Shown piece after piece: positions 11,847 through 37,762 of a stretch of 64,000 nt of DNA (within the stretch, counting starts at the first letter, position 1; each line of letters opens with the position of its first letter). Under the pieces are notes generated by a model, which was not told the origin of the DNA, searched no databases, and saw nothing but the letters and a program-made list of their open reading frames with translations. The DNA is from an uncultured Clostridia bacterium (GTDB lineage Bacteria; Bacillota; Clostridia; Christensenellales; Borkfalkiaceae), in the NCBI GenBank assembly GCA_947629535.1, contig CANREC010000002.1, positions 265 through 64,264 on the forward strand. Reading direction: 5' to 3'. The translations under genes were made by a program, and so were the position numbers.

Positions 11847-11889
11847 CTTGCCTATTTTCAGATAAAATCTGTTTTTTCGCGGTTTGCGA

Positions 11890-11912
11890 AGTATTATGTC
11901 AGACATAATACA
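11890..11912. promoter_or_regulatory. Palindrome copy 1: GTATTATGTC-A-GACATAATAC (candidate operator)
   Basis: Perfect 10-1-10 dyad at 11891-11911. The 25 nt AAGTATTATGTCAGACATAATACA are identical to 37122-37146. TTGCGA lies just upstream and TAATAC sits inside the right arm. Confidence 0.6.
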
Positions 11913-11980
11913 GACATCGCAGCATGAAATCGTTCAAAATCGTGAAATAACAGAACGGTGAGAGAATCGCCTGCCGACGC

Positions 11981-12010
11981 TTGACGGAAAGGGAAAGACT
12001 GTGGTATAAT
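11981..12010 (+). promoter_or_regulatory. sigmaA-type promoter upstream of carA
   Basis: TTGACG, 18 nt, TGgTATAAT. Confidence 0.6.
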
Positions 12011-18911: not shown

Positions 18912-20063
18912 ATGGAACAAGTCATCATCATCCGATATGCGGAAATTCATCTGAAGGGCAAGAACCGCGGCTATTTTGAGCGCGTCTTTGCCAATAATCT
19001 CGAAAAGGCAATGAAGGGTATCCGCCACGAGATCCATCGTACGAGCGGAAGATATCTTGTCGCCGATTTCGATGAGGAGAGAACGGACGAGATCATGCGG
19101 CGCGTCTCGAAGGTGTTCGGCGTGCACTCCTATTCGCTCGGACTTCTCACCGAAAACGACGAGGGCAGCATCTTCGAGGCCGTAAAGCTCCTTGCGCCCC
19201 AAGAGGGCACCTTCAAAGTGCAGACGCATCGCGGAGACAAGCATTATCCGCTCACGTCGATGGAGATCAGCGCCTGTATCGGCGGCAGATTGCTCGATGA
19301 AAATCACAATTTAAGGGTAGACGTCCACACCCCTCAACACACCATCTATATCGACATCCGCGAGAGCGGCAGAGCGCTCATTTTCTGCTCCTTTGCGGAC
19401 GGACTTCACGGCATGCCCGTATCTACCGCGGGGAAGGGACTTCTCCTCATCTCGGGCGGGATCGATTCTCCCGTCGCGGGGTACATGATGGCAAAGCGCG
19501 GCATGACGGTCGGAATGCTCCATTTCCACAGCTATCCGTACACCAACGAGGCCGCCAAGGAGAAGGTCGTCTCGCTCGCAAAAATCTTGTCCGATTACAC
19601 GCTCGTCAACCGTATCACGACGGTGAGCGTCACGCAGATACAGGAAGAGATCCACAGGAAATGCGCCGCCGAACTCAATGTGACGCTTTTGCGCCGTTTC
19701 ATGTTCCGCATCGCCGAGCGGATCGCGAAGTACGAAGGGGACGGCTGTCTCGTCACGGGGGAAAGCCTCGGACAGGTCGCAAGCCAGACGCTCGAGGGGC
19801 TGACCTCGTCCAATGCCGTCGTCAAACTTCCCGTCCTGCGCCCGCTCATCGGATTTGACAAAGAGGACATCATCGAAGTCGCAAAAAAAATCGGTACCTA
19901 CGAGACCTCGACGCTGCCGTACGAGGACTGCTGTACCGTATTTCTTCCCGATTTCCCCGCCATCAAGCCGAAACTTTCCTTCATCGAAGAGGAAGAGGGG
20001 AAACTTGACGTGGACGCCCTCGTGGAAGGGGCGCTTGCGACGCGCGAGGTCATCAAATTTTAA
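18912..20063 (+). CDS. thiI: tRNA 4-thiouridine(8) synthase ThiI (no rhodanese domain)
   Basis: 383 aa. THUMP-type N-terminus (IIIRYAEIHLKGKNR) and PP-loop SGGIDSPVA. Confidence 0.9.
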   Translation: MEQVIIIRYAEIHLKGKNRGYFERVFANNLEKAMKGIRHEIHRTSGRYLVADFDEERTDEIMRRVSKVFGVHSYSLGLLTENDEGSIFEAVKLLAPQEGTFKVQTHRGDKHYPLTSMEISACIGGRLLDENHNLRVDVHTPQHTIYIDIRESGRALIFCSFADGLHGMPVSTAGKGLLLISGGIDSPVAGYMMAKRGMTVGMLHFHSYPYTNEAAKEKVVSLAKILSDYTLVNRITTVSVTQIQEEIHRKCAAELNVTLLRRFMFRIAERIAKYEGDGCLVTGESLGQVASQTLEGLTSSNAVVKLPVLRPLIGFDKEDIIEVAKKIGTYETSTLPYEDCCTVFLPDFPAIKPKLSFIEEEEGKLDVDALVEGALATREVIKF

Positions 20064-22240
20064 TCTTCCCACCAACTGTCGGGAAGAGCTTTGGCGCGTT
20101 CGATGTGAACGAGGGGGAGATAGACCGTCTCTCCCTCGATTTCTTTGTAGAAAGGGGTGACGCTGTAACGGTAGCTTTCGCCTTCCTTCACAGAGCTGTC
20201 GCTGATACATTTTTGGTATTTTCCGCTGTAAATGACTGTTTCCACACCGTGATTTTCTCTTTTTACGATATAATCATAGTACTCTGTCTGACATAGTACT
20301 ATGTTTACGGTCCCATTGCTTACGGAAATCTTCGGCGTTTCGATCCTCGGCGCCGAATATTTTGTGCTCGTCTCATAGCCGCATGCGTTCTTTTTGAAGA
20401 TCTCGGGCCTGTCTGTCAGGAAGGGAGAATTGGGGTCGGAAAGCAGGATGCGATGATTTGTCTCATATTCCCGCATATCGATCCTGCGCGTCTCCACGCC
20501 GTCGCAGGGCGGGAAGGACGCGGGGGAATGTTCTCTATAAAGTGATTTCAGGATCTCGAGGGCGATGTTTGCGGGAAGGCCTCCGCCCGTTGTATCGATC
20601 TCCGTATTGTCCTTGTTGCCGAGCCAGACGGCGACGGTGTCCTCCGAGGTGTAGGCGATGGTATATGCGTCCGTGTTTCCCGTTTTTCCCTCGGCCGTTC
20701 CCGTCTTGGCACAGAGGTCAAAGGGGAGATTTTTCAGCTTTTTGGCTGTTCCTTCCTTGACGGCCGTTTTCAGCATATCGTTTAGAAGATAGCTCGTCTC
20801 CTCGGAAAAAACCTTGTTTTCATGCGGGCGATACGCATAGAGGACCTTCCCCGCGGCATTCTCGATGCGGGAAATTGTTTTGGAAGGAGCAAAAGTGCCG
20901 TACTTTGCGAGGACCGCGTACCCGTCCGCAAGCGATCGGAGAGAGAATCCTTCCCGCATGCCGCCGAGCGCCAATGCGAGGGAATAGTCCTCCTTTTCGA
21001 CATGCAGATCCATTTTATCGAGGTAGGCGGCTGCACGTTCGCACCCGATCGTGTTCAGGATCTTGACGGCAGGAATATTGACGCTGTGCGAAAGAGCGTA
21101 TCGGGCGCTCATGTATTTTCCGCTTGCGCCGCCCGCGTCGTCGGGACAATATCCCGCAAAGTCCGTCCGTTCATCTAAAATCGGGGTCGCGGGGCAGATG
21201 ATGTCCTCTTCGATCGCGGGTCCGTAGACGAGAAGGGGCTTTAGCGTCGACGCGGGGAGCCGTTTCAACACGCCGCAGGTGGAGTAGAAGGCCTTCAGAC
21301 CGTTCCCCCGATTGTCCCGCACGAGTGTGCATACGTCTGAATCCGCTTGCGTCTCTTCCAGTTTTTCCTGCATGTTTCTGTCGAGAAAGGTATAGACGCG
21401 GAGGGCGCCGAGGCTGCCCGTGTCTGCGTCGGGGAAGATTTGGGAAAGTTCGTCAAAGACGAGGGAGAGATAGCTGTCTCCGCTCTTCGTTTCGGCGGGA
21501 AACTCGGGCAGGGGATCTTGGACTGCGTCCGAATATTCTTTCTCGTCCAAGAAACCCTGTTCTTTCATGAGCTTGAGGATAAAATTCCGACGGGAAAAGC
21601 AGAGCTCCGCGTTGCGGAAGGGGGAATATCGGTTGGGGGACCTGACGAGAGCAGCGAGCATCGCGCTCTCCGAAGGTGTGAGATTTTCAGCCTCTTTGCC
21701 GAAATAGAAATCGGACGCCGCGGCGATGCCGAACACGTCGTGTCCGAAATAAATGGAATTGAGATAGAGCTCGATAATTTGGTCCTTCGAGTACTTTTTC
21801 TCGAGCTGCCGCGTCAATTTGATCTCTTTGAGCTTGCGTTCGATGGTCTTTTTGCTCGTGAGATGTGTGTTCTTGATGAGTTGTTGGGAGATGGTGGACG
21901 CGCCTTCACGGAAGGAGAAACTCTTGAGATTCTTGAGAATGGCGCCGCCGATGCGCTTATAGTCCAGTCCGTTGTGGGTATAGAAACGCTTGTCCTCAAC
22001 GGCCACGAAGGCCTGCGGGACGTATGCCGGCAGATCGCTGAGCGAGACGCTCTTTCTCCTCGCCGATTCGATCTGTTCGCCGTTTCCGTCATAGACGCGC
22101 ACGCATGCCGTGGACATCTGCAGCTTTTCGCTGTCGAGCCTGACGCCCGCCGTGACGCCGAGATAGCAGAATATCCCGCCGAGGAGCAGCGCCGCAAGCG
22201 TCCCGAGCGGGATCAGGATGGCAATGAGTACCTTTTTCAT
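20060..22240 (-). CDS. Class A penicillin-binding protein (transglycosylase/transpeptidase, PBP1A family)
   Basis: Start chosen at MKKVLIAILIPLG (signal anchor). GT51 motifs (EDKRFYTHNG, RKLKEI) and transpeptidase motifs STLKP and KTGT are present. The upstream part of the tracker ORF is not PBP-like. Confidence 0.88.
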   Translation of the reverse strand: MKKVLIAILIPLGTLAALLLGGIFCYLGVTAGVRLDSEKLQMSTACVRVYDGNGEQIESARRKSVSLSDLPAYVPQAFVAVEDKRFYTHNGLDYKRIGGAILKNLKSFSFREGASTISQQLIKNTHLTSKKTIERKLKEIKLTRQLEKKYSKDQIIELYLNSIYFGHDVFGIAAASDFYFGKEAENLTPSESAMLAALVRSPNRYSPFRNAELCFSRRNFILKLMKEQGFLDEKEYSDAVQDPLPEFPAETKSGDSYLSLVFDELSQIFPDADTGSLGALRVYTFLDRNMQEKLEETQADSDVCTLVRDNRGNGLKAFYSTCGVLKRLPASTLKPLLVYGPAIEEDIICPATPILDERTDFAGYCPDDAGGASGKYMSARYALSHSVNIPAVKILNTIGCERAAAYLDKMDLHVEKEDYSLALALGGMREGFSLRSLADGYAVLAKYGTFAPSKTISRIENAAGKVLYAYRPHENKVFSEETSYLLNDMLKTAVKEGTAKKLKNLPFDLCAKTGTAEGKTGNTDAYTIAYTSEDTVAVWLGNKDNTEIDTTGGGLPANIALEILKSLYREHSPASFPPCDGVETRRIDMREYETNHRILLSDPNSPFLTDRPEIFKKNACGYETSTKYSAPRIETPKISVSNGTVNIVLCQTEYYDYIVKRENHGVETVIYSGKYQKCISDSSVKEGESYRYSVTPFYKEIEGETVYLPLVHIERAKALPDSWWED
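20278..20300. repeat. Palindrome copy 4 (variant arms): AGTACTCTGTC-T-GACATAGTACT inside the PBP1A CDS
   Basis: 11-1-11 dyad with one mismatch. Its minus-strand reading shares 16 contiguous nt (AGTACTATGTCAGACA) with copy 2 at 29635. Confidence 0.55.
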
Positions 22241-27011: not shown

Positions 27012-28879
27012 TCAATATCCTGTCTCCCTCTGTCTATAACCGCATTGCGGCGGGCGAAGTCGTCGACCGTCCCTATTCCGTCGTCAAGGAACTCGTCGAG
27101 AACGCCATCGACGCGGGCGCGACGGAGATCGACGTCGAGATCGAGAACGGCGGAAAGCAGAAGATCCGCGTCGTCGACAACGGCTGCGGCATCGAAAAGG
27201 ACGAACTTGAAAAGGCGTATCGGCCGCACGCGACGAGCAAGCTCCTCGAGGCGGAAGACCTCTTCACCGTTTCTACGTTGGGTTTCCGCGGGGAGGCCAT
27301 CGCCTCGATCGCCTCTGTTTCCCGCATGAGGATCGTCTCCGATGCGGGAGAAGGAGCGTATATGCTTGCCTGCGAGGGCGGGCAGCTCGGCAAAGTTCAA
27401 CCTTCGGCGGGAGCCAAGGGAACGGAAGTCACCGTCAATGACCTCTTCTATAATACGCCCGCGCGGCTGAAGTTTTTGAAATCTGACAGTCAGGAGGAAG
27501 GGGATGTCTCCAACATGATGGCGCGTTTCATTCTCTCCCGCCCCGAGATCTCCTTTACCTACACGACGAACGGAAAACTGAAATTCCGCTCCCTCGGAGA
27601 CGGCCTTCCCTCCGCCATTGCGGTCGTCTACGGCGCCGCGACGCTCGGCGAATGCCTTGAGATCGCCGCCGACAAGCACGGGATCCGCCTTCACGGTTTC
27701 ATCGGGAACAGAAATTTTTCCAAACCGAACAGGACATACCAGAGCCTGTTCGTCAACGGCCGCTATGTCGTCAACCAGACAGTCGCAGCCGCCGTTACAA
27801 ACGCCTATGCCGCCTATCTCATGAAGAGACAGTATCCCTTCTATGTGCTCTTTCTCGACGTTCCGCAGGAGATCGTTGACGTCAACGTGCACCCGAACAA
27901 GGCGGATGTCCGTTTTCAGGACAACCAGATCATCTATGGCAGCGTGTATTCGGTCATCTCCTCTGTGCTTGACGGAAATTCGCGCGCGGTCGAGTATCTT
28001 GTGGGCGTGAAAGAAGAGCTCGAACGGGAAAAAGCGGCAGAGGAGCAGGGCGATACTCCCGCTCCCGCCCCCGCACAGCAGCTCCGCATGACCTATGAAG
28101 AGGCAAAGAAGGAGCTCGCATTCGACGTCTCTCCCGTCAAAAACGGGCCCTCGGAGCCGAGATTTTACACGCCCGATCCCATACGGTATGCCGTCCACTC
28201 CCCGGAAACGGCCGCAGGCGTCGCGGCGGACGAGGACGTCTTTGCGGCCAACCGAAAGATGCTCTTGGAGCAGGACCGCAGATCCGAACAGGAGAAGGTC
28301 GACGTCAAGGGGCTGCAATTCAAGGGCGAGCTCTTTCATACCTATCTCTTTTTCGAGGCGGGGGATGAGGCGTACATCGTCGATCAGCATGCCGCACACG
28401 AGCGCATTCTTTACGACAGATTACAGGCAAAGCTCGCGAACCGTTCGGTCATCTCCCAACCGATGCTCGTTCCGTATCTCGTGGACTTGAATGCGGCGGA
28501 GTACGCCTTTCTCACCAAGAATTTTGCTGTTTTGCGGGAAATGGGATTCGATATCGAGGAATTTGGGAGCGGATGCGTCAAAGTTTCCGCCATTCCCGCC
28601 GATCTTATGGGGATGGATCTTGCGTCGTTCTTCGCTGAAGTGCTTTCATCCATGGAATCTCTGCGGGCCATCCGCCTTGCGGAGATCTTGAAGGACAAGC
28701 TCGCGTCGGCTGCCTGTAAAGCGGCCGTCAAGGGCGGAGAATTTCTCACAGAAGAAGAGGCCAAGAAACTCTTGGAGCGCATGAACGGCGACATGGGCCT
28801 CAAGTGTCCGCACGGACGTCCCGTTGCCGTCAAGGTCAAAAAGACGGAGATGGAGAAACTCTTCAAACGCATCGTATGA
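27008..28879 (+). CDS. mutL: DNA mismatch repair protein MutL
   Basis: N-terminus MINILSPSVYNRIAAGEVVDRP, then GFRGEAL-type and DQHAAHERI motifs. The start overlaps the mutS stop (ATGA). Confidence 0.95.
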   Translation: MINILSPSVYNRIAAGEVVDRPYSVVKELVENAIDAGATEIDVEIENGGKQKIRVVDNGCGIEKDELEKAYRPHATSKLLEAEDLFTVSTLGFRGEAIASIASVSRMRIVSDAGEGAYMLACEGGQLGKVQPSAGAKGTEVTVNDLFYNTPARLKFLKSDSQEEGDVSNMMARFILSRPEISFTYTTNGKLKFRSLGDGLPSAIAVVYGAATLGECLEIAADKHGIRLHGFIGNRNFSKPNRTYQSLFVNGRYVVNQTVAAAVTNAYAAYLMKRQYPFYVLFLDVPQEIVDVNVHPNKADVRFQDNQIIYGSVYSVISSVLDGNSRAVEYLVGVKEELEREKAAEEQGDTPAPAPAQQLRMTYEEAKKELAFDVSPVKNGPSEPRFYTPDPIRYAVHSPETAAGVAADEDVFAANRKMLLEQDRRSEQEKVDVKGLQFKGELFHTYLFFEAGDEAYIVDQHAAHERILYDRLQAKLANRSVISQPMLVPYLVDLNAAEYAFLTKNFAVLREMGFDIEEFGSGCVKVSAIPADLMGMDLASFFAEVLSSMESLRAIRLAEILKDKLASAACKAAVKGGEFLTEEEAKKLLERMNGDMGLKCPHGRPVAVKVKKTEMEKLFKRIV

Positions 28880-29787
28880 AAAAATTGCTCGTCATCTGCG
28901 GCCCGACCGCGTCGGGGAAAACGGCTCTTGCCGTACAGTGTGCCCGCCTTTTGGACGGGGAGATCGTCTCCTGTGACGCCCTGCTTATCTATCGCGGCCT
29001 CGAGATCGGCACCGCAAAGCCTACAAAAGAGGAAATGGGGGGCATTCCGCACCACATGATCGACGCCGTAGCGCCCACGGAGAACTTTTCGGTCAGCGAT
29101 TTCGAGAGAATGGCGTTACCGATCGTAGAGGACATTCTCGCGCGGGGGAAAGTTCCCATTCTCTGCGGCGGCACGGGGTTTTATCTCAATTCCATTCTCT
29201 TTCATCACGCTTTCGGGAACGCACCCGCCGATGCGGAGATACGGAATAAGTACGAAAAAATCGCCGAGAGGGATGGGAAAGAGGCCCTGCATGACATTTT
29301 GCGGCGCGTCGACCCCGAAAGCGCGGAAAAACTGCATACAAACGACGTGAAACGGGTCGTCCGTGCGCTCGAGATCTATGAGCTTACGGGGAAAAAGAAA
29401 TCGGAGCAGAACGACGGCGACATTCCCCGCTATCCCTTTTTCGCCTTTGCGTTCGATTATCCGCGAGAGGAACTCTACCGCCGCATTGAACGGCGCGTGG
29501 ATGAAATGTTTGAGCGGGGGCTCATTAAAGAAGTTGAATCTCTTTTACAAAGCGGGGTGCCTGAGGATGCCCAATGTATGCAGGGGATCGGTTACAAAGA
29601 GATCGTTGAAGGGCTGAAAAATGGCGATTTGCAAAGTACTATGTCAGACATAATCAAGAAAAATACCCGTAATTATGCCAAAAGACAGGAAACCTTCTTC
29701 AACAAAATGAAAAATCTTTACAGGATCGCACCGAGCGATGCCGAAACAGCAGCAAGAGAGGTAATTAAGATATATGGACATCAATGA
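28876..29787 (+). CDS. miaA: tRNA dimethylallyltransferase
   Basis: MKKLLVICGPTASGKTALAV P-loop, and NYAKRQETFF near the C-terminus. The start overlaps the mutL stop. Confidence 0.92.
   Translation: MKKLLVICGPTASGKTALAVQCARLLDGEIVSCDALLIYRGLEIGTAKPTKEEMGGIPHHMIDAVAPTENFSVSDFERMALPIVEDILARGKVPILCGGTGFYLNSILFHHAFGNAPADAEIRNKYEKIAERDGKEALHDILRRVDPESAEKLHTNDVKRVVRALEIYELTGKKKSEQNDGDIPRYPFFAFAFDYPREELYRRIERRVDEMFERGLIKEVESLLQSGVPEDAQCMQGIGYKEIVEGLKNGDLQSTMSDIIKKNTRNYAKRQETFFNKMKNLYRIAPSDAETAAREVIKIYGHQ
29635..29655. repeat. Palindrome copy 2: AGTACTATGTC-A-GACATAATC inside the miaA CDS
   Basis: Shares TATGTCAGACATAAT and the upstream TTTGCAAAGTA with copies 1 and 3. It lies about 120 nt upstream of the next gene start (29774). 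Confidence 0.55.
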
Positions 29788-35682: not shown

Positions 35683-36921
35683 ATGGACGAATTTTTGAGA
35701 CTGTATCTGACAGGAAGACGGGCGGAAGATCTTCAAAAATTCCGCCGTTTCCGCACGGTCATCGGCCTTTTGGGCGCGATTTTAGCCGTGATACCCGTGT
35801 TTGTCAATCTTTTCGGCGCTCCAAACGCCCCGCTGAGCATTGCCATGACCGTACTTGGGTTCCTTTTCGAGGCCGCGGCGACGGTCCTTTCTTTCGTGCA
35901 GAAGAAGTTTGTCGATACCCTCGTCGAGCTCGAAAATGCCGCGATCGAGATCGAAAAACAGGGTGAAGAGAGGGAAAACTACAAAAAACTCTATGAGGCG
36001 TGGCGGGAGACCTTCGGAAAACAAAATCTTCGCATGATCGTATCGGCCGCATTCACCGTGCTCGGGTTCGGGACCCTCGCCGCGGCCGTGCTCCTTTCAA
36101 CATTTTTGGAACTTCCCGAAATCGTTCTGCCCATCGCGTGTCTCGTCGCCGCAGTCGTTCTCGCGACCCCCGCATTCATGCAAGCGACGGGCGAGGCGAA
36201 GGCGCGGGCCATGCTCTACGAAAAGGCGGGGCGGGAGATCGACGAGATCAAGCGCAGCAAATTCGGCGTTTCCGAAAGGAAGATCTTTTCACAGTCCGAA
36301 AACGCCCGTGGCTACTCGGCTCTTCCCGTACCCGTTGCGGCGTTTTTGAAAGAGGAGGCCGAAAAAGAGGACTTCCGCACCGTCAACAAGCGGAGCGGAA
36401 TTGTCGCCGCCTTCCTCGGACTTGTTTTCGTCGCCTTGATCTTTCTCATGGGATTTTGGGAGGAAATGGAGCCGACGGTCGCTTGGACAGTCATATTGAG
36501 CGTGCTTGCGGCCGCGCTTGTGCTCTTTTTCGCGCTCGCCCTTCCCCTTGAAGGCAGAAAGAAGGGGATCTACAAAAGAAATGCGCAAAAACTCGCGGAC
36601 AGCCGTGCCGACACCATTCGCCGACAGTTGCAGGGCGCGTGGATCGCGCAGCAGAGAAGGGGGAACATCATGTTTCTGTGCTTTCTGCTTGCGCCTCTTG
36701 TCATCGGCATCGTCTACGGGAGCATCGGCCATGCGCTTGGATATGAGCTCAGCCTCATCGTCGCGATTGGGTCGACTTTTATGATATGTCTCATTCCCGC
36801 GGCGATCGTTTCCTTGATCATTTGGACCATCATGTACGCCGTTTACCGCAAGCGCGTGCGCCCGGCGGAGGCTGAACTTCAAAAAATACTCGAAGAGGAG
36901 AGACCGGATGAACGACGGTGA
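35683..36921 (+). CDS. Hypothetical 8-TM membrane protein built from four TM-hairpin + charged-helix modules
   Basis: ATG at 35683. Four pairs of hydrophobic helices, each followed by a Lys/Arg/Glu-rich segment. Confidence 0.6.
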   Translation: MDEFLRLYLTGRRAEDLQKFRRFRTVIGLLGAILAVIPVFVNLFGAPNAPLSIAMTVLGFLFEAAATVLSFVQKKFVDTLVELENAAIEIEKQGEERENYKKLYEAWRETFGKQNLRMIVSAAFTVLGFGTLAAAVLLSTFLELPEIVLPIACLVAAVVLATPAFMQATGEAKARAMLYEKAGREIDEIKRSKFGVSERKIFSQSENARGYSALPVPVAAFLKEEAEKEDFRTVNKRSGIVAAFLGLVFVALIFLMGFWEEMEPTVAWTVILSVLAAALVLFFALALPLEGRKKGIYKRNAQKLADSRADTIRRQLQGAWIAQQRRGNIMFLCFLLAPLVIGIVYGSIGHALGYELSLIVAIGSTFMICLIPAAIVSLIIWTIMYAVYRKRVRPAEAELQKILEEERPDERR

Positions 36922-37096
36922 TAAGAGTAAAAAACAGGTGCCGCTACGGCTCAGCCCGTCGCTCTATGCAGAGCTCTCGAAGTGGGCGGAGGAGGAATTC
37001 CGTTCGCTCAACGGGCAGATAGAATATCTTCTCTCGAACTGCGTCAAAAAGCGCAGAGGGGGGAAATCGTCCAAAAAAGAGGGGGATGACGTATAA
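36908..37096 (+). CDS. Arc/MetJ-type ribbon-helix-helix DNA-binding protein
   Basis: 62 aa. VPLRLSPSLYAELSKWAEEEFRSLNGQIEYLL matches the Arc-like RHH pattern. The start overlaps the preceding gene by 14 nt. Confidence 0.7.
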   Translation: MNDGDKSKKQVPLRLSPSLYAELSKWAEEEFRSLNGQIEYLLSNCVKKRRGGKSSKKEGDDV

Positions 37097-37123
37097 TTCT
37101 CCCCGATTTTTGCCTTTTTGAAA

Positions 37124-37146
37124 AGTATTATGTCAGACATAATACA
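37124..37146. promoter_or_regulatory. Palindrome copy 3: GTATTATGTC-A-GACATAATAC (candidate operator/promoter)
   Basis: Perfect dyad at 37125-37145. TTGAAA (37118-37123) lies immediately upstream and TAATAC sits within the right arm. It is 28 nt after the RHH stop and 40 nt before the ATG at 37185. Confidence 0.6.
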
Positions 37147-37184
37147 TGTAAAATCATAATTTTATTGTCTTTGAAGGAGCTTTT

Positions 37185-37523
37185 ATGTCTATACCTTTAG
37201 GGATCGCGCTCGGCGTCAATGTTGCGCTGATCGTTATATTGGTCATTTTTATTTGCGTGCGGATCCGTACCATTTCGAGGAGCTTTGTCTACACTGTCAA
37301 GGGCAAAGAGGTCGTTGTCCGTTACACCTTCAAAAACGGAGCGCAGATCTTTGTGAATGGGTCGCTCGAGGAGCAGTATTTGAACAGCCATGCTTCCCGC
37401 TTTACCATCCGTGCCACGATCGATGGGGAGGAATTCAAGGCACATGTTTCGATCGGCTTTTCAGTCAAGATCGAGGCATACTATCAAGGCGCGCTTTTGA
37501 CCCCCGATTCGGTCGGAAAATAA
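37185..37523 (+). CDS. Hypothetical small membrane-anchored protein
   Basis: 112 aa with SD GAAGGAG. One N-terminal TM (IALGVNVALIVILVIFICV), then a beta-rich domain. A terminator follows. Confidence 0.65.
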   Translation: MSIPLGIALGVNVALIVILVIFICVRIRTISRSFVYTVKGKEVVVRYTFKNGAQIFVNGSLEEQYLNSHASRFTIRATIDGEEFKAHVSIGFSVKIEAYYQGALLTPDSVGK

Positions 37524-37599: not shown

Positions 37600-37762
37600 G
37601 GGATTCTTCGATCGCTATGCTCCCTCAGAATGAGCGGTGGGCTACGACCTGCCGCGCTCCTGAGCGATCGCGCTCATCCTGAGCGTAGCGAAGGATCTCA
37701 TAAACCTACGGAGCTTAACTTCGTTCAAGGGGATTCTTCGGGCTTTGCCCTCAGAATGAGCG
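37600..37762. repeat. Cluster of three hairpin-type repeat units (REP-like), alternating orientation
   Basis: Units at 37600-37636 (+), 37671-37699 (inverted) and 37729-37762 (+). Consensus G(R)GATYCTTCG-N5-13-CTCAGRATGAGCG. A partial unit lies at 37655-37666. Confidence 0.7.

Follow-up and report, generated by a model that had tools for sequence, protein, structure and literature searches.

A polar family of palindromic DNA sites around a difSL-like locus in an uncultured genus of gut Clostridia

The stretch of DNA analysed here (the window; 64 kb, C2:265-64264 of a 1.70-Mb, 138-contig metagenome-assembled genome (MAG) labeled G000) comes from an uncultured Clostridia bacterium and carries four copies of a palindromic element, the first of which lies upstream of carA. 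The reading that we favour, with a probability of about 0.6, is that these palindromes belong to a family of polar DNA sites that is confined to the terminus region of the chromosome and points at dif, and that they are the predicted sites of a terminus-specific protein and not an operator of carA. Terminus confinement and polarity toward dif are the decisive property of the family, and this property is invisible from the window alone. The comparisons suggest that this uncultured genus of gut Clostridia has a system, hitherto undescribed, that marks the terminus or traps forks. The genus consists of uncultured gut Christensenellales, with MAGs from rabbit, chicken, and human gut, and all genomes analysed are MAGs.

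Within the window, a perfect 10-1-10 dyad, GTATTATGTCAGACATAATAC, occurs twice and is accompanied by two related copies (Table 1). A search with the 21-mer pattern, allowing up to three mismatches, returns these four sites and no others, where 100 shuffles give an expectation of 0.00, in agreement with the first-pass annotation, which had read the four copies from the letters of the window and judged them to be beyond chance. The 13-mer core with up to two mismatches gives nine strand matches against 0.26 expected. The exact repeat reported earlier around copies 1 and 4 is real, with a length of 24 nt (11889-11912 = 37123-37146) and not 25 nt. A fifth copy lies about 100 nt past the end of the window (C2:64369).

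A genome scan, followed by a search with a position weight matrix (PWM) built from the oriented copies, identifies about 28 discrete sites in G000, with scores of 28-55 bits against a background below 20. The oriented consensus spans about 30 bp, tTTGCATA-GTAyTATG-tcaga-CATArTAc, in which a second 12-nt palindrome, CATAGTACTATG, is completed by the left part and overlaps the dyad; full symmetry (CATAGTACTATG-TCAGA-CATAGTACTATG) is limited to a minority of copies. The dyad is conserved at 1.4-1.8 bits per position and the one-sided GCATA extension, on the origin side, at 0.6-0.9 bits, while the sequence variants (CGTGA, TGTGA, TATGA, TCACG, and TCACA) all fall within the central 5 nt. A dyad with a variable 5-nt centre fits the earlier proposal that the element is the site of a dimeric protein. 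Family size is about 25-40 copies per genome, at a spacing of ~10 kb. The genes that flank the sites, tabulated alongside the genome-wide search as the first-pass annotation had proposed, are unrelated and share no common function.

The copies are crowded on few contigs, with 10 on C1, five on C2, three each on C5, C28, and C15, and none on other contigs that resemble these in size and composition. Eight contigs (C1, C2, C5, C7, C27, C28, C34, and C64) that together make up 292 kb, or 17% of the genome, hold 24 of the 28 sites (p = 4e-15), and all eight map by tblastn onto a single 388-kb contig of a relative, G013. That contig itself carries 24 sites, which lie at 11-300 kb and leave the last 88 kb empty; relative to dif they extend from -98 to +191 kb. 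The family is confined to roughly 110-190 kb on each side of dif. Contamination of the bin was rejected as a cause of the clustering, as GC content and a principal component analysis of tetranucleotides do not separate the site-bearing contigs and synteny explains the pattern. The GC content of the MAG ranges from 0.51 to 0.60. Both parB and gyrB lie on other contigs than the sites; the origin was not located because a pattern search for the DnaA signature gave no match.

In G013, the cumulative GC skew peaks at ~120 kb and the gene strand switches from + to - at ~105 kb, a convergence that identifies the terminus; the same GC-skew flip is found in G011. At the strand flip lies a difSL-like 30-bp imperfect dyad, CTATTCGYAAAA-N6-TTTTRCGAATAG, 100-130 nt upstream of a gene for a XerS-like recombinase of 358 residues, for which XerS is the highest-scoring NCBIfam model (202 bits along the entire profile, short of the curated cut-off of 267). 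The canonical XerCD dif has no match within nine mismatches, the actual site being difSL-like. This dyad is unique in G000 (C1:86279-86308) and is also found in G013 (C1:109185) and G011 (C1:42962); it is single-copy in 33 of 41 genomes of the genus and stands beside the recombinase gene in every genome checked. The G000 dif is ~300 nt from a doublet of the motif at the C1 end, and in three genomes the motif forms a doublet at a distance of 100-300 nt from dif and xerS. In G058, a genome of another family with strong skew, a 630-kb contig has its GC-skew peak at the xerS-dif locus. XerS has been linked to difSL (PMC2731167, PMC2965235), and the XerS/difSL layout, one recombinase of ~356 residues linked to one imperfect-dyad site at the terminus, is the one seen here. 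As 57 of the 61 genomes of the order carry a single copy of the XerS-like recombinase, the Christensenellales appear to use dimer resolution of the XerS type, with a single recombinase.

Two observations on the G000 assembly touch this locus and the skew. The end of C1 (86,4xx) and the end of C64 (89xx, reverse complement) share ~60 nt where the XerS-like gene begins, which places the two contigs next to each other and the assembly break right at the dif locus. On C9, C11, C24, and C30, in contrast to the terminus contigs, GC skew and the dominant gene strand disagree in sign, which may reflect regional composition, islands, or binning.

The sites are oriented with respect to this locus. Of the 70 sites on the dif contigs of nine species, 65 are directed toward dif (p = 2e-14); most of the remaining five are either near-symmetric copies or the second site in a doublet. 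In G013, all eight sites to the left of ~110 kb are on the + strand and 13 of the 16 right-hand sites are on the - strand, and the orientation flip coincides with dif, with the GC-skew peak, and with the gene-strand switch. The polarity is not simply co-orientation with local transcription, because the site beside a lagging-strand PadR-like gene (described below) follows the replichore rather than the gene.

Phylogenetic footprinting, another of the checks put forward by the first-pass annotation, shows that the motif is kept in relatives within the genus and that many positions are orthologous. The exact 13-mer core is present in 23 of 24 same-genus genomes and in ~0 of 16 other families of the order, and the reversed control gives 0. 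Proteins of this genus are only about 70% identical between species, and MiaA itself is 65-77% identical; the copy within miaA is found at the same codons in 29 of 30 species, and its block, AGTACTATGnnnGACATAAT, is far more conserved than the adjacent codons, synonymous and third codon positions included. For 17-18 of 24 G000 sites (~70%), G013 has a site at the orthologous position, among them the counterparts of copy 2 (at 189119) and copy 4 (a syntenic site at 175274). The copy upstream of carA has no counterpart in G013 (C1 ~197.4-197.9 kb), where a site lies ~6 kb off at 203648. Since most positions are shared but the carA copy is not, site density rather than a particular target gene may be what is maintained, and the alignments suggest that individual sites turn over while the ~10-kb spacing persists. 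Fixed arms with a free centre, conservation at the DNA level inside genes, and chromosome-scale placement together argue for a sequence-specific DNA-binding protein.

The element is not a gene-specific operator of carA. The first-pass annotation had proposed a promoter/operator module tied to this gene, that is, a repressor operator within a sigma-70-type promoter (TTGNNA-16-TAATAC) that would serve carA and a small regulon, perhaps through a ribbon-helix-helix (RHH) protein encoded beside copy 4. A -35-like flank (TTTGCA/TTTACA) and an ATAAT-type right arm do recur, about 15 of the 27 copies covered by this and several other context counts are followed by a gene in the same orientation, and intergenic positions account for 19 of the 27 (p = 1e-11, with 13% of the DNA being non-coding). 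We nevertheless regard such an operator as very unlikely. Eight copies are intragenic and in frame (in glmS, a spoIIIAE-like gene, dxs, miaA, the gene for the penicillin-binding protein PBP1A, nrdG, and genes for an amylase and a flavoprotein), some of them mid-gene (glmS, spoIIIAE, and dxs), and five of the intergenic copies lie in convergent gaps. The distance to the next start codon varies from 11 to >900 nt, and transcripts from promoters at the copies 11-17 nt from a start codon would therefore be without a ribosome-binding site (RBS). A sigma-70 promoter was also rejected on its hexamers, the best pairs of which are either spaced 14 nt (TTGCAT/CATAAT) or end in TAATAC without the T at -7; the sigma-G/E/K/F and sigma-54 consensus sequences match the motif in letters but not in spacing. 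For both carA and the PadR-like gene, a separate consensus promoter lies downstream of the site. That of carA, TTGACG-17-TATAAT at 11981-12010, is the stronger promoter already pointed out in the first-pass annotation, and that of the PadR-like gene is TTGACA-17-TGtTATAAT. The TTTGCA-type flank of the miaA copy is not kept in other species. A regulon explains neither the confinement to the terminus nor the strand flip at dif.

The contexts of the four window copies were taken from a codon-usage gene call (our own heuristic) and Pfam. Copy 1 lies in the gap between a gene for a 160-residue membrane protein and carA. Copy 2 lies within the class A PBP gene (PBP1A; 20060-22240, minus strand), in its 3' part, where it is read as VLCQTEYY. 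Copy 3, within miaA, precedes by ~120 nt the start of the next gene, which overlaps miaA and belongs to the Met_gamma_lyase family. Copy 4 falls between the gene for the 62-residue RHH protein (36908-37096) and a gene for a 112-residue membrane protein (37185-37523). The suggestion that this RHH protein is the regulator does not hold: its gene is patchy, being present in 21 of 37 genomes of the genus and missing from 16, including the motif-richest ones, G013 and G011, although G013 retains the site syntenic to copy 4. With this distribution, the RHH gene is an accessory one that stands outside the palindrome system. It overlaps the end of the preceding gene, for a protein with eight transmembrane helices, and also occurs in a few other families. 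An exact match to the 21-mer in Staphylococcus auricularis (L101:5924-5944) appears to be due to chance; it falls within a yvcK-like coding sequence (..TPEYYVRHNTD..), with whiA downstream.

A second alternative to a terminus family holds that the copies are repeats of the repetitive extragenic palindromic (REP) or miniature inverted-repeat transposable element (MITE) kind, or RNA or cruciform hairpins, which have spread by mobility and are kept neutrally or as mRNA stabilisers or terminators. Many intergenic copies do indeed fill the narrow space from a stop codon to the following RBS, the folding energy of perfect copies is -7.8 kcal/mol, and a few symmetric copies in convergent gaps are flanked by runs of A and T. 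Typical copies, however, fold at -1 to -3 kcal/mol (z ~0), as shuffled sequences do, and across the 27 copies the pairing of a 9-bp stem and its covariation are no better than in shuffled controls, with the 18-32 pair unpaired (a C.A mismatch) in 16 of 27; Rfam gives no family match in the window. These results are in line with the first-pass view of a DNA-level element rather than an RNA structure. The argument used for it, that a 1-nt centre prevents a hairpin, was too strict, as a stem of 9 bp with a 3-nt loop is possible, and the hairpin fails the tests regardless. Positions that are orthologous between species, in-frame coding copies included, speak against a mobile repeat, and mobility leaves the strand flip at dif unexplained. 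We find this explanation the hardest of all to credit.

As to what a terminus-confined site family would do, a deep replication fork trap like RTP/Ter is, by analogy, the most likely function, a preference that we hold tentatively and at less than even odds. A dimer of a terminus-specific protein would read the GTAyTATG-N5-CATArTAC dyad, the centre being free to vary, and the GCATA extension on the origin side, which completes CATAGTACTATG, would provide a second, weaker contact and make the complex asymmetric. The weak side would then face forks arriving from the origin, and the strong dyad would face forks leaving dif. In Bacillus subtilis, a weak A and a strong B dimer site give RTP-Ter its polarity, with forks that meet B first being blocked, and a Ter site lies within the rtp promoter, where it provides autoregulation (PMC10331603). 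By this analogy, the orientation of the sites described here is the one that an RTP-type trap would require. The two systems further resemble each other in having ~30-bp sites around the terminus in two opposed orientation groups, a composite (putative here, from sequence conservation) of a strong dimer site and a weaker adjacent one, a presumed weak side that would face the origin, a site at the promoter of the (candidate) binder gene, and, in a fold model, a predicted DNA-binding domain with the same winged helix and C-terminal helix. They differ in that there is no sequence similarity in either protein or site, in that RTP-Ter has nine sites whereas the present family has 25-40 over ~300 kb at ~10-kb spacing, and in that the candidate binder here has a long coiled coil and a membrane anchor.

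The best candidate for the binder, to which we give slightly less than an even chance, is a PadR-domain coiled-coil membrane protein (Table 1). It is composed of an N-terminal winged helix, a ~400-residue coiled coil rich in E, K, R, and Q, and four hydrophobic C-terminal (transmembrane) helices, and orthologues of 570-970 residues are found in 36 of 37 genomes of the genus. In 27 of the 28 species that could be evaluated, this gene has a site 40-70 nt ahead of its start, always on the opposite strand; in G000 it is at about -55 of the promoter/transcription start site. A second, weaker variant site, AATATGTCACGCAGAGGTAT, lies ~53 nt upstream of the main one (G000 C1:46600-46900, minus), and three related species likewise have two sites at this gene. 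In four other families the orthologue is located directly beside xerS-dif, either divergent or in tandem (Table 1); this PadR-like/xerS/dif neighbourhood is conserved across families and previously undescribed. A fold model of the domain (predicted local distance difference test score, pLDDT, 64; low confidence) matches PadR/LmrR first and then, among the Foldseek hits, B. subtilis RTP (1f4k, 2dqr, and 1bm9; E ~0.01, template modelling score 0.42-0.49, 15-18% identity), 1f4k being an RTP-DNA complex. Pfam RTP gives no match in the candidate domain, even at E <= 10.

The consensus operator of PadR proteins is ATGT-N8-ACAT (PMC5050560). The core TATGTCAGACATA has the ATGT/ACAT half-site letters of such operators, and a site, often two, stands upstream of the PadR-domain gene. 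The half-sites are spaced N3, however, as compared with N8-10 (PMC5050560), the layout of ~28 sites is chromosome-scale, and the site is at about -55 and not over the promoter. Alternative half-sites, CTATG/CATAG, are 10 bp apart centre to centre.

Several points weigh against a fork trap and its candidate protein. The number of sites, 25-40 at ~10-kb spacing, is far above that of any known fork trap. Polarity toward dif is the direction of replication, of transcription, of SMC travel, and of FtsK alike, and so cannot alone choose between these processes. The GC skew is weak in the genus, and about a quarter of the sites are nearly symmetric, with ambiguous orientation. For the candidate protein, the ATGT/ACAT spacing is N3 and not N8, orthologues with the PadR-coiled-coil-membrane layout also occur in families without the motif, and a search of the G058 terminus with exact 12-mers and with the palindrome from its PadR promoter found no multi-copy motif. 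With ~28 conserved sites, one DNA-binding neighbour is expected by chance, and the likeness to RTP is of low confidence (pLDDT 64) and generic to PadR folds.

Alternatively, the sites may serve as a non-arresting mark of the terminus domain, where a bound protein would condense the ~300-kb region, tether it to the membrane or septum, or unload or block SMC. This function is doubtful when taken by itself, and ranks nearly equal to the fork trap. The confinement of the sites to ~15-20% of the chromosome around dif, at a ~10-kb spacing and a matS-like density, is what a mark would produce, and both MatP/matS and XerD/XDS are known as dedicated terminus systems (PMC11894783). The ~400-residue coiled coil and four transmembrane helices of the candidate would suit a tether better than a terminator, and linkage of its gene to xerS-dif recurs in four other families. 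Polarity, with 65 of 70 sites aimed at dif, is not something that a pure mark would require, and the tether protein is itself still a candidate. The resemblance to MatP-matS extends to a palindromic core of ~13 bp with a 1-nt centre, to tens of copies in both genic and intergenic positions, and, for the candidate binder, to a coiled-coil extension of the kind that in MatP connects the terminus with the division apparatus. Yet matS (GTGACRNYGTCAC) is a symmetric, non-polar palindrome, whereas the motif differs in sequence and is polar, and MatP is an enterobacterial RHH and four-helix protein, whereas the RHH protein by copy 4 is excluded as binder. A combination of the two functions, in which a membrane-anchored coiled-coil protein of PadR/RTP fold would act on dozens of polar 30-bp sites flanking the XerS/difSL site as a third terminus system of independent origin, trapping forks and also anchoring the terminus domain at the envelope or septum, is an equally unlikely but possible arrangement.

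A further reading would make the sites extra targets of the XerS-like recombinase, that is, XDS-like decoys with 11-bp inverted arms, CATAGTACTAT/ATAGTACTATG, around a variable 7-bp spacer, GTCAGAC. The arm-spacer-arm anatomy, with variation only in the spacer, is that of the core of a tyrosine-recombinase site, the flank TTTTGC..ATAG is loosely like the dif arm TTTTGCGAATAG, XerD-XDS provides a precedent with terminus-restricted protein-binding sites near dif, and a site doublet stands right beside dif and xerS in three genomes. The real dif arms, CTATTCGYAAAA/TTTTRCGAATAG, are nonetheless clearly unlike the motif arms, and the resemblance needs a 2-nt gap. Because the arms differ, the motif copies are not half-dif sites, which also counts against a mark of the XDS type; they are in addition far more numerous than XDS. 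XerS-like genes are order-wide, whereas the motif is genus-specific. Recombinase decoys thus appear improbable, only a shade less so than the carA operator.

Two other systems share the polarity of the terminus family. FtsK-orienting polar sequences (KOPS) and SpoIIIE recognition sequences (SRS) are likewise skewed toward dif and switch exactly at dif, but KOPS are non-palindromic 7-8-mers, dense over the whole chromosome, whereas the motif is a ~30-bp dyad site near the terminus only and is absent from most G000 contigs. Tus-Ter has polar sites in opposed orientation around dif and the terminus, some of which are intragenic and one of which lies at the promoter of the terminator gene. Tus, however, binds as a monomer to a non-palindromic 23-bp site with core GNRNGTTGTAAYKA, in place of a dyad, and the Tus-Ter consensus core GTTGTAAC was not found in the motif. 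Homologues of Tus are limited to some Gammaproteobacteria (PMC10331603). More generally, the motif matches no known operator, as the first-pass annotation had noted.

A related element is present in a different family, f20 (genome G055), as a direct repeat, TTGCATAGTAC-N17-TTGCATAGTA. All six of its double-unit copies, a small sample, are on the dif contig (Table 1). To the right of dif there are five, all on one strand, and to the left a single copy on the opposite strand, next to the PadR orthologue. The repeat hints that the terminus-site phenomenon may be older than the genus.

Table 1. Positions of the window copies, the candidate binder gene, its orthologues near xerS-dif, and the f20 repeats. 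Copies 1-4 are numbered in window coordinates.
Feature	Position	Strand	Description
Copy 1	11877..11917	+	Oriented site tcgcggTTTGCGAA-GTATTATGTCAGACATAATAC-agacat; perfect dyad 11891-11911; PWM 47.3 on + vs 16.3 on -
Copy 2	20273..20313	-	Near-symmetric site CATAGTACTATGTCAGACAGAGTACTATG; related copy 20279-20299; PWM 44.8 on - vs 39.4 on +
Copy 3	29622..29662	+	Related copy 29636-29656; inside miaA (28876-29787), read as LQSTMSDII
Copy 4	37111..37151	+	Perfect dyad 37125-37145, TTTGAA flank; PWM 54.4 on +
Candidate binder gene	G000 C1:44565-46673	-	702-aa protein, PadR domain E = 3e-19, LmrR/1xma-like
PadR-like orthologue by xerS-dif	G055:C4:3541-6193		
PadR-like orthologue by xerS-dif	G058:C2:478055-479822		
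PadR-like orthologue by xerS-dif	G039:C11:73-1759		
PadR-like orthologue by xerS-dif	G053:C6:9727-11300		
f20 double-unit copies	G055:C4:4057, 7446, 31039, 38232, 50254, 133795		All on dif contig

To our knowledge, sequence-specific terminus systems are known only from a few narrow lineages. Tus-Ter is found in some Gammaproteobacteria, RTP-Ter in a few Bacillus, MatP-matS in enterics, and XerD-XDS in Bacillus; a literature search for a terminus motif in Firmicutes returned nothing relevant. Whether Clostridia, or most bacteria, possess a fork trap or an organiser of the terminus domain is a standing question, and a 30-bp site, a map for each genome of ~25-40 copies that are polar about a newly located difSL-like site, and a candidate binder make it directly testable in vitro and in heterologous hosts. 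The copies in miaA, dxs, and glmS also illustrate that chromosome-scale DNA signals under selection can fix synonymous positions in housekeeping genes. In practical terms, the motif together with dif offers a means of orienting and scaffolding terminus contigs where MAGs of this genus, which is abundant in the rabbit and chicken gut, are fragmented.

Repeats of another kind were observed near the G013 skew peak and in the window. At G013:C1:120.7-121.3 kb, short GC-rich repeats, TTGTCATTTCGCCCCGCGC, fill a 545-nt convergent gap, and at 37600-37762 of the window a different set of GC-rich, REP-like hairpin repeats lies downstream of a terminator.

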